A DNA stretch of 64,000 nucleotides from Leucoraja ocellata (Eukaryota), in assembly GCA_036785375.1 (NCBI GenBank), contig JAWMAR010000063.1, positions 4,340,001 through 4,404,000 of the forward strand, in the 5' to 3' direction. How positions within the stretch are numbered: position 1 is the first letter of the stretch; each line of letters opens with the position of its first letter. Both the position numbers and the translations under genes were made by a program. The notes below the pieces were generated by a model, which saw nothing but the letters and a program-made list of their open reading frames with translations, did no database searches and was not told the origin of the DNA. Shown piece after piece: positions 6,281 to 48,104 of this stretch.

Positions 6281-6470
6281 TGTGTTCAAGAAGGAACTGC
6301 AGATGCTGGAAAATCGAAGGTACTCAAAAATGCTGGAGAAACTCAGCGGGTGCAGCAGCATCTATGGAGCGAAGGAAATAGGCAACGTTTCGGCCCGAAA
6401 CGTTGCCTATTTCCTTCGCTCCATAGATGCTGCTGCACCCGCTGAGTTTCTCCAGCATTTTTGTGTACCT
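6281..6470. mobile_element. Fold-back (palindromic) mini-PLE with 14-bp TSD
   Basis: Arms 6318-6393 and 6395-6470 (76 bp, 1 mismatch, 1-nt centre). Unpaired 37-nt tail at 6281-6317. Flanking direct repeat CCGTGTCTAACCCT at 6267-6280 and 6471-6484. Confidence 0.9.
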
Positions 6471-6734
6471 CCGTGTCTAACCCTGACGTTCGCAATATTC
6501 CCATTGAGTTGAATGTCTGGGTTAAAATATTTTATTACGAACTATCTTACCGCAAGAACCAGCGAGGTGAGACAATCAAATTATATACGGTCAGTTCGGG
6601 CAAGCAACGGTTTCCTTTGGTGATAACCTCGATAATCTGACACCCAACCTCTCCCATCCTTTCTCTGCAATCATTTCTACAGTGGAAACCGACAACAACT
6701 ATTATCATTTGTTCTTTGTAGCTTTTCATACCTC

Positions 6735-14478: not shown

Positions 14479-15612
14479 TCATTGAACAGGGGACTGCAGT
14501 GTGTGATGAAGCGGCGGAGTGTCCCTTTGTGAATATACATCCTCCATCCCTGGGTGCCCGGGGATCCCGGCTGGGGTCATCCGCTTTTCTTTTTGTCTTC
14601 TGTTACAAAACCAAACTCTGACCACTTCTTTCTCTAACTGCAGACTGTCAGCCAAGCTGGTGATCTCATGAGCCGATGGCTTGGGGCACTTTAAGAAGTG
14701 ATTCTCCAACGCCCCCTTCACTCCTATCTCAATGGACGTCCGCTTCTTTCTCTTCCTCCCCTGGGCAGCGATCTTGTCTATGCTGGTGGGACTCCCCGAG
14801 GTGGAGTCAGTCTCCTCCAGCCATTTGTTCAACAGGGGCTTCAGTTTGCACATGTTCTTGAAGCTGAGTTGCAAGGCTTCAAACCTGCAGATGGTGGTCT
14901 GGGAGAAAACGTTGCCGTACAGTGTGCCCAGGGCCAGGCCCACGTCCGCCTGGGTGAAGCCGAGCTTGATCCTCCTTTGTTTGAACTGCTTTGCAAAGTG
15001 CTCCAAGTCATCTGACGTGGGCGCATCTTCATCCGAGTGGTCCTGGTGATGTTGCGGAGGATGCTGCTGGTGGTTGTCATGGCCACCTGGATCCTCGTGG
15101 AGTGCATCCGTCATCCCATGGTGGAGAGACTGGGTTTGTGGGCTCAGCATGCTATTGAGGCTGGTGAACCCCGGCTGCGAGTAGATGAGCGGTTGGTGGC
15201 CGTTAGTGGATGGTGGCATCCCCGGGATGTGATGCGCCGCCGCCGTTCCCCAGCCGCCGCCAGGGTGGTTGCCATGAGTCTGTTGATGGACCATATGATG
15301 TGTCCGGTGATGAAGGCTGTTTCCAAGGTCATCCCTGGCTGTCTGCACAGTGGCCTTTACTGGGTCTGGCTGTCCGAGGTGAGAAGCGGTGACCCAAGGT
15401 GCCCCGTCAGTGACAGAAGACAGCCACTGGTGGCTGTGCGTAATGGGATGCCCATTGCTGGCCAGCCCATGCAAGTAGTCATTTTGCACCATTTTCTGAA
15501 CTTCTCTATAGGTAGTTCCTGGATGCATCCTGTCAGAGTCCGGATGCACCAAAGAGTTAGAGTGGAGCGAGTTATTCCTCGGAATGTAATGAGCCGAAGC
15601 TGTGGTGGCCAT
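14479..15612 (-). CDS. POU3F1: POU domain class 3 transcription factor 1 (Oct6/SCIP/Tst-1), intronless, 377 aa
   Basis: POU-specific domain ([67 protein letters not shown]) and POU homeodomain ([10 protein letters not shown]...[15 protein letters not shown]). N-terminus [30 protein letters not shown], homeodomain [12 protein letters not shown] and C-terminus [16 protein letters not shown] are POU3F1-diagnostic. ATG at 15612 is in a good Kozak context (GTCATGG); the ORF track's 15627 start is a TTG. Confidence 0.96.
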
Positions 15613-22640: not shown

Positions 22641-23352
22641 CTTGAACATTGAATTCTCCAAATTCAAGGTAATACATCGCCCATCTCTTTCCCAACCCCG
22701 CCCTCCCATCCAAGTGCACACGCGATTCTAGTAACACTGCTCCTTCCCTTACGCTCATCTCCCATCCACGTCCCCATTTCCCCTTTATCCCGTTTCCCCT
22801 CTCTCCTCCCCCTTTCCACCCACATTGCTCCCTCTAGCCTTACAATTCGCTCTGCTTTCTCTCCTCATCTGACATCCTTTTGTATCCTTTTCACCTCTGC
22901 CCTTTGTCACAAGTCCCATCTGCTAATCAGACCCATCTTACCCACCTATTCCCAGATAGACACAAAATGTTGGAGTAACTCAGCGGGACAGCCAACATCT
23001 CTGGAGAGAAGGAATGGGGGGCGTTTCGGGTCGAGATCATTCTTCAGACTGGACGAGTCTGAAGAAGGGTCTTGACCCTAAACGTCACCCATTCCTTCTC
23101 TCCAAAGATGCTGTATGTCCCGCTGAGTTACTCCAGTTTGTTGTGTCTATCTAAAGTTTAAACCAGTATCTGCAAATTCCTTCCTACCAATTCCCAGGTT
23201 TTATCCACCCCTCTTTTTCAGCATTCCCCCCCCCCCCCCCCCCCGCCAACCCCAGTCTGTCCGAGGAAGGGTCCCGACTAGAAACGTTCCGTCCATTCCC
23301 TCCACAGATGCCGAATTCCTCCAGCACATTGTGCTTTGCTCAAGATTCCAGC
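22641..23352 (+). mobile_element. Older PLE 3' region (ORF end, pyrimidine-rich UTR, decayed hammerhead) hosting a nested element
   Basis: Starts TTG AAC ATT GAA TTC TCC AAA TTC (LNIEFSKF, a GIY-YIG C-terminus), then a C/T-rich UTR, then CCGAGGAAGGGTCCCGACTAGAAACGTT. Confidence 0.72.
22956..23186. mobile_element. Nested fold-back mini-PLE with two back-to-back hammerhead cores
   Basis: Imperfect arms 22954-23050 and 23056-23152 around a GGACG loop, with a one-sided tail 23153-23186. TSD CC(T/A)ATTCCCAG at 22945-22955 and 23187-23197. Confidence 0.85.
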
Positions 23353-31196: not shown

Positions 31197-31384
31197 TTTA
31201 TTTGTTGAAATATATTGAATATTGAGAAGTTGCAGAATTTTGCAGCAGATTCAGACCAAGTCCGCAAACTTGCATGATCAGGGATTAAAATGCAAATACT
31301 CTTTTAATGATATGTTAAGTGTTAATGGTTGTCAATCAACAGACCTGGAATCAAAACATGACTATTATAAATTCTTAGGCCCCC

Positions 31385-31772
31385 TTTATTCATGGCTGAC
31401 CATGGGTGTCTCCAGGGTTGGACGCCAGTGCGTGACTTTGTTTAACGTGGGGAGACTGCTGCACAGACAGCCAACATGCGGTCCTTGACAGATCTGGGTC
31501 AGGATCCAGTGGCATGGAGTCCAAGACGACCGGCGACCCTTTTCGGCTGCAGCCTTCATCCACCAACCCAGCCGTTGTGACGCTACACTAAGGTTAGCCA
31601 TCATCCTCCGCCTGTTCCACCGTTGAGGTAGTTTGGATTGCTCTTTATCAAAGTCCTCCCCTTCGACCTTTACCATCATGGGTGGCCCTACCAGGAGTAT
31701 AGCTCCAGACGGCATCGCTCTCAGGATCTCAGGACCACACGAGCTTCTCCACCACGACAAGGTGACAATCCA
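31385..31772 (-). mobile_element. RTE-derived ~390-bp non-coding element with HDV-like ribozyme fold (copy B)
   Basis: Colinear over its full length with 46167-46560. The 5' part GGATTGTCACCTTGTCGTGGTGGAGAAGC resembles BovB/Rex3 (RTE clade) 5' ends as recalled. Confidence 0.75.
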
Positions 31773-33785
31773 CAATCCATAATTGTAAACATTCCAAATT
31801 TCAGATGTTCATATTTCATTCCTAGTTCTCAACCCCATCCAGTCTTTCTCTCTGTTTATTTCCCTATCTATCTGATATGACTTTCAATTGACTTACTTCA
31901 AGCTCCTTAAAGCTCTCACTGTTTATTTCTGTCTCTCCAAATCGCTCCCCAGTTGTTTGTCTTATTTCCGCAGACGCACTGCCCTGTTCACTTGCAGCGC
32001 CACTATCAGTTTATACTTTCAGCAATCTCACAGATTATGTAATGTGGGCAAGTCTAATTTTCAGCAAAGATCTGCATAACTGTTTGATCTAACAATTGAT
32101 ATGCTGATGGAACCAGAGATTATAGACTGTGAGGTGAAACATAGAAAGCATGAACACCGGCTGAATGTGCCCATAAAGCCCATGCAATTCTGCACTTCCA
32201 TCTGTGGCTTTACCCTCTCCTTTATATTGATAAGTCCTCCAAATAGGTTCTCCATGTTCATTCACAACTTTAATAAAATGCCCCTTCTGACCTGTTAACC
32301 TCTGTGTTTCTTAGACACTGGCTGCATCTCTTTGCATTCCAATTTTTACCACTTAAAATTTACAAGCCTCTTTTCATTTGTTTTAATGGAGTTTGTCTGT
32401 AGTTCATACAGGCATCTGTGCATTTCCACTGTGTATCTAGCATCAATTTGTGGTGTAGATTATATTTGCCCTGTCTGCCAAATGCATAATAATTCCACTG
32501 CGAAGAAACAATCAGCCTACTGTATATACAGGCAACCATGTCTAAGCAAAAATTATTCCAACGGGTTCTATATGTTAAATGTTACATGTCTAAAGGAAAT
32601 GTAAACACATTATTTTAATATAATGATTTTCACATTGTGAGTGACAGTATTACATAAATTTGCAAGGCTTTCAACACAATTAATCTGATGATGTTAAAAG
32701 CCTTTTAGTTAAAAGCCTAAGTGGTGTAAGGCATAGTTTATTTTAATAAAGCATGCATAATTAAGCACATCACCATATACTATTCAAAGTATAAATTATT
32801 ATGTACAAATACATAACTAAATCACATGCTTTATACCAAAATGGCACAGTCAGTGTGAACCTCACCATAGAATAAGGTCTTCTTTGTGAATAGTTCATTA
32901 AGAGAGCACACATGTACACGAGTGGACATATTGAAGTTAATGGCATGTGTTATACACTTATAAGCTGGTAAATCTCGGGCATCACAGAGTGAAATATCTT
33001 TTTTTTTCCATTGACGAAATGGTTGTACATTTGGACGCGTGCATACTCACTGTTAATTCTTGTTTATGGTCTGCAGAGTTCGAACATTTAAAAGGGAAAG
33101 ATAATGAATGAGCAGAGAAATGAGTCTGAAGTAATAGTCTTGTTGAAAAGCTGGTACTGAGACAGGAAACATAAGTTGTATGACCTTCTTGTGTAATTTT
33201 GATGCCTGTTGTACCCAACTACTAATGTTTTTTTTTTAATCAATTAATATTGCAGTCATGGACAGTGCTAAGAATTATTCCAGGTCTGGCAAACTACCAT
33301 TTTCAGTGCAATTACACAAACACCTAATCCATTCCTTTCTATTCTTCTGTCTATGTTTAATGGAGGTTTAACCCAGAAATATTGAATGGATGGGTAAAGA
33401 GTGCAGGTATTCATGGAGTAACATTACAATTGTAATTCCCATGTGTATATTCCTTGATAAACTGGCAAATTCAATGCACATTTCAAATTTTGATCCAATT
33501 TTGCCAATGGCTTATATGGCAAACATGTAAAAATATTTACTTTCTCCTCATTTAAAATTAATGACCCATGAATATGATGCAAGTTAATTTGCTCTTTGAT
33601 TTTCTCATTTTTACACTGGATAATTCTCAATAGCCTGACATGCACAAAATAGGATTCACCTACTACTTCTGTACTTGCTAAACTACACGGCCAAGAAAGG
33701 CTTGACTTTAAAATTCTCCTTATTGCATTCAAATCTTCCCTTTGCCCCTTCCCACTTCCGCGGGCTCTTCTGGTTCAACATTAAA

Positions 33786-46158: not shown

Positions 46159-46560
46159 CATCTCCATGGATTGTCACCTTGTGGTGGTGTAAAAGCTTGT
46201 GTGGTCCTGAGATCCTGAGAGTGATGCCGTCTGGAGCTATGTTCCTGATAGGGCCACCCATGGTGGTAAGGCCAAGGGGGAGGACTCTGACGAATAGCAA
46301 TCCAACCAAGACCTCAATGGTGGAACAGGCGGATGATGGTTACTGACCTTAGGTGGAGCGTCACAACGGCTGGGTAGATGGATGAAGGCTGCGGCAGAAA
46401 AGGGTCTCCGGTCGTATTGGACTCAATGCCATTGGATCCTGACCCAGATCTGTCAAGGACCGTGTGGTGGCTGTCTGTGCACCAGTCTCCCCTCGTTAAA
46501 CAAAGTCACGCACTGGCGTCCTCCAACGCTGGAGCCACCCACGGTCAGCCATAAGAAATA
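46159..46560 (+). mobile_element. RTE-derived ~400-bp non-coding element with HDV-like ribozyme fold (copy A)
   Basis: Homologous to 31385-31772. TGGATTG (46167-46173) pairs with CAATCCA (46298-46304). CGAA at 46291. 3' hairpin GACCGTGTGGTGGCT/AGCCACCCACGGTC. Confidence 0.75.
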
Positions 46561-47018
46561 GGCAATGGTATACGATATTACACAGACTACACAACATTAG
46601 CAACATGTTACGCAGAGGAGCCCTCAAAAGTTCCCCCTGAAAAGTTTCCCGCACAGAAACGTTTCCTTTGTTCCACTTACCTCCCTCACCACCTTCTTTG
46701 CTCTCTATCCAAGCTTATTTCTCCCTTTCTCTGCAGATGGATCCCAAATCTAAAACATTCATTATTTATCTTTTCCCAGATTCTGCCTAACCTGCTGAAA
46801 TTTTCCAGCGTTACACAGAAAAGCTGGAGAAACTCAGCGGGTGCAGCAGCATCTATGGAGCGAAGGAAATAGGCAACGTTTCGGGCCGAAACCCTTCTTC
46901 AGACTGATCGGGGGTGGGGGTGGGTGGGGACAAGAAAGGGAAAAGGAGGAGTAGCCAGAAGGCTGGAGGGTGGGAGGAGACAGCAGGGGAGCTGAGGAAG
47001 GGGAGGAGACAGCAAGGA

Positions 47019-47162
47019 CTAACAGAATTGGGAGAATTCGATGTTCATGCCCCGGGGGTGTAGAGTCCCCAAACGGAATATGAGGTGCTGTTCCTCCAAT
47101 TTCCGGTGCTGCTCGCTGTGGCCATGGAGGAGACCCAGGACAGAGAGGTCGGAGGCGGAGTG
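47019..47162 (-). pseudogene. PLE GIY-YIG endonuclease C-terminal fragment (open, ends at TAG)
   Basis: Manual translation HSASDLSVLGLLHGHSEQHRKLEEQHLIFRLGTLHPRGMNIEFSQFC*, matching the R..E...I..L.T..P.G.N GIY-YIG signature. Confidence 0.85.
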
Positions 47163-47324
47163 GACTCTACACCCCCGGGGCATGAACATCGAATTCTCCC
47201 AATTCTGTTAGTCCTTGCTGTCTCCTCCCCTTCCTCAGCTCCCCTGCTGTCTCCTCCCACCCTCCAGCCTTCTGGCTACTCCTCCTTTTCCCTTTCTTGT
47301 CCCCACCCACCCCCACCCCCGATC

Positions 47325-47358
47325 AGTCTGAAGAAGGGTTTCGGCCCGAAACGTTGCC
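47325..47358 (+). ncRNA. Minimal hammerhead ribozyme motif (mirror copy on the minus strand at ~46872-46905)
   Basis: CTGAAGA (47328-47334), an extra A, stem II GGGT-TTCG-GCCC, GAAA, palindromic stem III AACGTT, and a predicted GUU cleavage triplet. Stem I is very short. Confidence 0.7.
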
Positions 47359-48104
47359 TATTTCCTTCGCTCCATAGATGCTGCTGCACCCGCTGAGTTT
47401 CTCCAGCTTTTCTGTGTAACCTTCGATTCTCCAGCATCTGCAGTTCCCTCTTAAACACGAAATTTTCCAGCATTTGTTTTGTTTTCATTTTGTAGCAAAA
47501 TGCTAGTTTTCTTTTGCAGTTCGACCTGTAAGGATTGTTTTCATAGAACATCATGTAACCGCTGTGGGATGATGGGAATGTTGATGTAGAGCTCAAGGTT
47601 TTCAACAACATATGGATGAATGAGTAAAAGGTGTTAAAATTTATATATTATTGATTTACACATATGAGGATTGGGAATTACTCCATGGGAATCAATTGCA
47701 ATTAACATTATCTCAAGGTTGTAGAGCCAAACAGCGTTAGAATGGAATATTTTCTGAAGAGGACCATGTACATAAGTGCCGATACAAAGTAGCAATTAGA
47801 TAAAATAAGTTTTCATCACAAATAGTAGATACAGTAAAGGATTATCGGCAGCTGCCCTGGTGAAACCATAACTGCTTTCCAGAATTTTAAAGCGTAGAAG
47901 TAACCGATAATTGAAATTGAAGCTGGTGAAAACCACTTAATGCCTATTGTAAAATTGGATATCATCTTTATCTGCCGAAATGCTACACTTATTAAAAATA
48001 ATTTAATTCTGCGACCAGAACCACCACATATCTCGGAGGGTATGAGGAGATGTGGTGAGGACTGTTCAGAGCTGGTCGGAGAGGGGGGGGGGGGGGGGGG
48101 GAGG

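Follow-up and report, generated by a model that had tools for sequence, protein, structure and literature searches.

The HDV and CPEB3 ribozymes carry a G at position +1, and HDV-like ribozymes of RTE retrotransposons were reportedly described by Ruminski and colleagues in 2011. Ribozyme-headed RTE elements, and short derivatives of them, are already known. In the trypanosomatids, L1TcRz of L1Tc and NARTc, together with the SIDER ribozymes, provides HDV-like ribozymes of proven activity at +1 of a LINE and of its short derivative (PMC3185411, PMC4035085, PMC3383444). The L1Tc primers place a C at +1 (PMC3185411), the L1Tc and NARTc ribozymes cleave there, and the Pr77 sequence of L1Tc acts as a promoter as well as a ribozyme (PMC3383444); the very low activity of one SIDER ribozyme has been ascribed partly to a C1–A39 mismatch (PMC4035085).

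The family described here is represented by two copies, A and B, in a 64,000-nt stretch of Leucoraja ocellata DNA (contig JAWMAR010000063.1, positions 4,340,001 to 4,404,000), which we call the window. It shares with the trypanosomatid ribozymes a C at +1 and a single-pair P1.1, but L1TcRz, of the Ingi clade, has 77 nt and a small P4 and is also a promoter, whereas the ribozyme predicted here has 145 nt with a 93-nt branched P4. With the R2 ribozymes (PMC3774820) it has in common the double-pseudoknot topology, the U–G pair of L3, the catalytic C (putative in our case) and the variable 5′ junctions that R2 shows when cut at the element end; R2, unlike this family, is rDNA-specific and often cuts upstream in the 28S. 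The drz-Agam-2 ribozyme (PMC4908430) also shares the double pseudoknot, the L3 U–G pair and the catalytic C, but has a large J1/2 domain where only 2 nt are present here.

In the supplement of Kojima 2018 (PMC5786205), positions 24–155 of RTE-3_Crp are about 87% identical to the head of our element (counted by eye), and the printed 5′ UTRs of RTE-1_Crp, RTE-7_PM, AviRTE, BovB and RTE-3_Crp have the same L3, P1 3′ strand, P4 motifs and C-N-A-A-G-A spacing. The Repbase RTE LINEs of that source resemble the parent LINE identified below in their single EN+RT ORF, microsatellite tail and target-site duplications (TSDs); unlike those families, the commoner form of our element carries the tail of a second LINE family. 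The bipartite elements RTE1-N1_LA, RTE1-N1b_LA, RTE-N1/N2_Lch, RTESINE1/2 and WALLSI3 likewise consist of RTE 5′ and 3′ ends, are about 400 nt long and, as presented there, have no small-RNA head; unlike them, the commoner form (tail-1 form) takes its head and its tail from two different LINEs. By eye, the elephant elements RTE1-N1/N1b_LA show the same pseudoknot, with a covaried P3 and with a P2 that lacks the bulged purine seen here, which agrees with the P2 register of the preliminary description of this locus, where that purine is bulged out. No description of this family or its parent under a name was found in the literature searched; Repbase and Dfam lay outside that search, and the family may be catalogued there.

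Our principal conclusion is that the intact copies of the family probably have an HDV-type ribozyme head, by which they are predicted to cut themselves from host transcripts. The ribozyme observation holds for the family and not for copy A.

Two decayed copies in the window

Copy A is a non-autonomous, RTE-derived retroposon of about 400 nt at 46159..46557 on the forward strand, with a head from the 5′ UTR of the parent, LINE-A, and a tail from the second family, LINE-B. Its decayed HDV-like ribozyme domain extends over 46159..46303 (+) and opens with the 5′ strand of P1 (46159..46165), the first base of which is both the predicted cleavage site and the element's 5′ end. After a 2-nt J1/2 come the 5′ strand of P2 (46168..46175) and, at 46176..46188, a 3-bp P3 (46176–78 with 46186–88) closed by a 7-nt L3 (46179–85). 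The segment 46189..46197 comprises the 3′ strand of P1 (46189–95, with two substitutions) and J1/4 (46196–97), and is followed by a 93-nt branched P4 domain (46198..46290). The domain ends at 46291..46303 with the putative catalytic C (46291), J4/2 and the 3′ strand of P2 (46295–303), which includes the one bulged purine. The remainder of the LINE-A 5′-UTR-derived body (46304..46525) is 85% identical to L164, a LINE-A copy; the 3′ tail (46536..46557), all of these parts being on the forward strand, resembles the 3′ end of LINE-B and is clipped, and a clear TSD is absent.

Copy B lies on the reverse strand at about 31372–31778 and is 89% alike to copy A over the aligned stretch. Its LINE-B-type tail (31372–31408) is fuller than that of copy A, its P1 5′ strand is missing, with a short duplication in that place instead, and its catalytic C is changed to T at 31647. 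The preliminary description had named P1, P2, P3, L3, J1/4 and the C of copy A and had recorded the T and the missing strand of copy B, and each was found at its stated place. Its mention of P1 and L3 mutations in copy A was also correct, but the list was incomplete: P1 has lost three of its seven pairs, L3 carries G instead of C at position 5, the putative catalytic C is followed by an altered base, and a G>T substitution at 46295, which had been missed, breaks the closing pair of P2.

Rfam scans of the window and six related loci gave no relevant match, including to the HDV clan. Single-strand folding, a method blind to the pseudoknot, rated copy A no better than its shuffles (z=0.21) and copy B at z=−1.6. 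Judged by their sequences, copies A and B would be ordinary fossils, and the mutated ribozyme head of copy A is likely dead.

The window also contains an intronless ORF of 377 aa with Pou and Homeodomain matches (14479–15612, reverse strand), which resembles a class III POU gene; the distance upstream from this gene is about 16 kb for copy B and about 30 kb for copy A. Only this position would suggest that the host has co-opted copy A for regulation or cleavage, which we consider very improbable: the P1 pairs, L3 base and P2 closing pair just mentioned are broken, copy A is about 90% identical to other copies of the family, and selection has left no sign among the copies. At 46810–47420, 250 nt downstream of copy A, a common repeat forms an inverted repeat whose 259-nt arms match perfectly across a spacer of 93 nt. 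It either stems from a recent fold-back duplication or is an artefact of the assembly; that common repeat also forms smaller palindromes at 6315–6473 and 22954–23152.

Size and sampling of the family

A first look at the 3.44-Gb genome yielded 3,647 candidates for the element, 40 of which were scored. The first 39 nt of the element occur exactly 328 times in the genome (control, 0) and are exact in nine of 74 sampled copies; therefore at least some 2,700 copies, as a rough figure, reach the 5′ end. Copy counts are inflated by paired loci, since the assembly holds either both haplotypes or recent segmental duplicates: L002 (G000:C329) is a 97% identical copy of the window locus, flanks included, and many other loci are paired likewise.

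The family was sampled by its 3′ tail, which avoids a bias at the 5′ end. The 120 loci taken (90 of 676 matches to tail 1 and 30 of 452 matches to tail 2) were reduced to 110 by the removal of duplicates; 13 of these have no element body nearby and are mostly LINE 3′ ends, 23 are 5′-truncated at scattered positions, and 74, out of 97 element-bearing loci, reach the 5′ core. Median lengths to the tail motif are 411 and 396 nt for the two tail forms, and the mean divergence from the family majority is 4.8%. A search for L3 variants turned up nothing but copies of this family with point mutations (30 of 54 places examined).

The copies decay about neutrally, and a sign of selection among them is absent. 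Non-CpG substitutions amount to 29 of 1,099 positions (2.6%) in the core and 288 of 7,677 (3.8%) in the rest, a difference that is not significant (p=0.07); that the core is not significantly better kept is expected for dead-on-arrival insertions.

The fold at the level of the family

The preliminary description had assembled the fold by combining the two window copies. In the majority sequence of the 74 copies, P1 complementarity and the conserved C are both restored: it has a 7-bp P1 opening with a C–G pair, a 2-nt J1/2, a P2 from which one purine bulges out, and a P3 of 3 bp. The L3 of 7 nt has U as its first and G as its sixth base; P1.1 is a single G–C pair, P4 is 93 nt long, and C-A-A-A precedes P2. 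The bases of the L3 reverse wobble are well kept (of the 74 copies, 71 have the U and 67 the G), and the putative catalytic C, which sits in J4/2 four nt ahead of P2, is found in 70/74 copies, in 124/127 copies and in all five lineages compared below. Two details of the first account apply in part. J4/2 reads CGAA, as proposed, in copy A, but C-A-A-A in the family (A in 71 of 74 copies); the basal P4 stem exists, but as a minority haplotype (16/127 copies), the commonest state being a U–U mismatch (64/127), and the association for this stem as first described is not significant among the 127 copies (p=0.07).

A strict HDV descriptor, composed after the fold was known, found the nested double pseudoknot (P1 of 6–7 bp, P2, 3-bp P3 and P1.1) in 19 of the 74 copies, and 38 have it when one mismatch per helix is allowed. 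The same descriptor gave no match in 268,112 bases of background and one in 640 kb of shuffled window. Neither window copy passes. This failure, the lack of an Rfam match and the z-score of copy A would be in keeping with a chance pattern that arose from mixing two mutated repeat copies. Such an origin is hardly conceivable, given that 19 single natural copies pass strictly against none in the background, and the compensatory changes seen in P1, P2 and P1.1 already refute it for the most part.

Covariation across lineages

A search of metagenomes with a 21-nt core pattern gave seven loci in four lineages; the pattern fixed positions 14–34, and therefore the invariance of P3 and L3 there is by design and is no evidence. 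One locus per lineage was combined with L104, a LINE-A copy from the present genome, into a covariation set of five lineages. Five of the metagenome loci pass the strict descriptor, and in L063 and L065 a deletion has removed J4/2. Over the five lineages P1 is paired in 35/35 cells, and its pairs 2 and 3 vary, with changes on both sides. P2, P3 and P1.1 are paired in 55/55 cells, with four pairs (three of P2 and that of P1.1) changed on both sides; none of 500 shuffles reached this paired share, and slid controls gave 31–49%. In P1.1 the first base of J1/4 pairs with L3 position 3, and G–C is replaced by A–U in L062. P3 covaries, by eye, only in the printed RTE1-N1b_LA. The structure of P4 is only loosely conserved: four lineages have a branched form, in which both partners differ at 8 of the 23 consensus pairs, and L067 has one long hairpin. 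Covariation, a check proposed in the preliminary description, is present as compensatory changes in P1, P2 and P1.1.

The unpaired C-N-A-A spacing before P2, the U and G of L3, and P1.1 are kept across the five lineages and in many printed RTE 5′ UTRs. The C1–G pair is also kept in all five. The preliminary description had listed the C at +1 among its caveats; with this pair conserved, and with a C at +1 in active trypanosome ribozymes, the objection falls.

In the four relatives outside this genome an adjoining ORF is absent. L067 is a compact, 109-nt version of the ribozyme in AT-rich DNA, and L062 has an intact ribozyme head followed by AT-rich, bacterial-looking ORFs, on a contig that is probably chimeric or host-contaminated. 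Four matches of the core pattern in genome contigs were chance matches in bacterial DNA and were used as negative controls (0/4 pass the descriptor); viral contigs contained no match to the core pattern.

The element's 5′ end

Among the 74 copies chosen by their 3′ tail, 37 start at +1, 53 by +3 and 65 by +8, so that genomic 5′ ends do pile up at the predicted cleavage site, a point that the preliminary description had proposed to check. At P1 position 1 the base composition of the background gives way to that of the element: C occurs there in 46/74 copies as against 18% upstream (p=5e-17). No two of the 74 copies share an upstream flank, and 38 have candidate TSDs, 22 of which end within 3 nt of +1. 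By analogy with R2 elements that cut at their own end, as treated in PMC3774820, this pattern would be expected for RNA cut at +1, with variable junctions.

Much the same would be seen if an internal promoter initiated at +1, and a sharp 5′ end alone proves no cleavage, because LINE-B also has a fairly sharp 5′ end and does not match the HDV descriptor. RNA reads were available from a poly(A) run, X24 (a fragmented library of a related organism, about 6% of which was read), in which the element is present with no pile-up of read starts at +1, while 89 reads continue past +1 into the host. A P1 substitution is found in about 110 of the 125 reads of that orientation; the read-through in X24 therefore derives for the most part from a single broken copy and is hardly informative for intact copies.

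It is conceivable that the pseudoknot is real but cleaves poorly and serves mainly as 5′ protection or as a protein-binding site, and that an internal promoter for RNA polymerase II, starting at +1, defines the 5′ end. The double role of Pr77, the missing pile-up in X24 and the defined 5′ ends of LINE-B would fit this, as would the short J1/2. With only 2 nt, J1/2 is a real caveat for the predicted catalysis, by analogy with the short spacers of drz-Agam-2, of which those of 0–1 nt gave little or no activity and those of 3–7 nt several cleavages per hour in the experiments reported in PMC4908430. The promoter explanation nevertheless seems unlikely to us in view of the C-N-A-A spacing, L3 bases and P1.1 kept across five lineages and many printed RTE 5′ UTRs, and of an element whose first base is exactly position 1 of P1, where HDV is cleaved.

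If, as we prefer, the intact copies cut themselves free, the source copy would be transcribed by read-through and the double pseudoknot would form in the transcript. The J4/2 cytosine and Mg2+ would then catalyse cleavage 5′ of C+1, leaving an RNA with a 5′-OH. An RTE protein would recognise the 3′ tail in trans and copy the RNA by target-primed reverse transcription; the variable 5′ junctions of 1–3 nt would arise at second-strand priming, and the new copies would then decay neutrally.

A parent LINE and two tails

The (GAT)n tail led to LINE-A, a LINE of this genome. When LINE-A copies were picked by an internal piece, 4/30 showed the same head within the flank (L104, L114/L115 and L123), and one more did so on a longer flank. 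The LINE-A copy L164 is 3,854 nt long, with the head at base 1, a 682-nt 5′ UTR, a broken single EN+RT frame in which EN (below the Pfam cut-off) and RT pieces are recognised, a (GAT)n tail and a TSD. P0001, the closest intact LINE-A relative, consists of EN+RT only and is 81% identical over the RT piece. The 5′ part of the short element matches L164 from its first bases, over about 360–385 nt at 85–88%. The single EN+RT ORF, the absence of ORF1 and RNase H, and an RTE-type 5′ UTR that matches named RTE families would place the parent in the RTE clade. No solved RTE structure was found, the best matches being L1 and R2, and cluster names gave no clade assignment for the LINEs. With the parent LINE, the near-identity to RTE-3_Crp, the alignment, the covariation and the pile-up of 5′ ends, the central proposal, that a short RTE-derived element starts with an HDV-like fold, is upheld.

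A tRNA-derived SINE was rejected as the source of the element, which begins at the LINE's own 5′ end; no tRNA was found in the window. A generic search of the genome for RT families returned an unrelated, L1-like family. The RT matches of this genome are dominated by a young L1-like family with many intact ORF2 frames of 1,270 aa (L098–L103). One LINE-A copy, L075/L104 (G000:C2), has an intact ribozyme head and an EN region joined straight to the 3′ tail, an internal deletion of intermediate length.

The short element has a microsatellite tail and occurs with two 3′ tails. Tail 2 is common to LINE-A, and tail 1, 33 nt long, is 85–94% identical to the 3′ end of LINE-B; the tail pattern has 323 exact matches. 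Compared piece by piece, the protein of LINE-B shares only about 25–54% identity with P0001, and LINE-B begins with a different 5′ end. With a LINE-A head and a LINE-B-like tail, the tail-1 form, which is the commoner one and that of the window copies, is therefore a chimera. The terminal repeat of tail 1 (AAG) differs from that of LINE-B, so that the true donor may be a sister family; none was found among the LINEs examined. Exchange of tails among SINEs is described in PMC5786205.

The 5′ ends of LINE-B gave no match with model R1 (5 loci), Rfam (2 loci) or the strict descriptor (6 loci), and no consistent match with a long-L3 descriptor (6 loci). Near-full-length LINE-B copies (L287, L290, L291, L297, L298, L311 and L312) start at nearly one point and are GC-rich and structured there; a promoter or another ribozyme is possible at this structured end. 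L153 is a short internal-deletion derivative of LINE-B in which its own 5′ UTR is joined to its own tail, and constitutes a second bipartite element.

Implications

That RTE elements and HDV-like ribozymes are linked was known; the present family adds a well-supported vertebrate case, with covariation and 5′-end mapping. Here a ribozyme-headed short element uses the tails of two different LINEs, and about a quarter of the sampled full-length copies keep the full fold, which makes them ready test material. The family bears on a question raised in PMC5786205, namely whether ribozymes explain the bipartite derivatives of RTE, Ingi and R2. More tentatively, and with appreciable doubt, we suggest that the ribozyme may be a portable, self-releasing 5′ module, which could have saved the head of a dying RTE by a swap onto the 3′ tail of another RTE family; that several hundred copies may still be intact, active and cutting host transcripts; and that a C+1, short-J1/2 subclass of HDV-like ribozymes, not modelled by Rfam, may extend across the RTE clade, including the mammalian RTE1/BovB and AviRTE.
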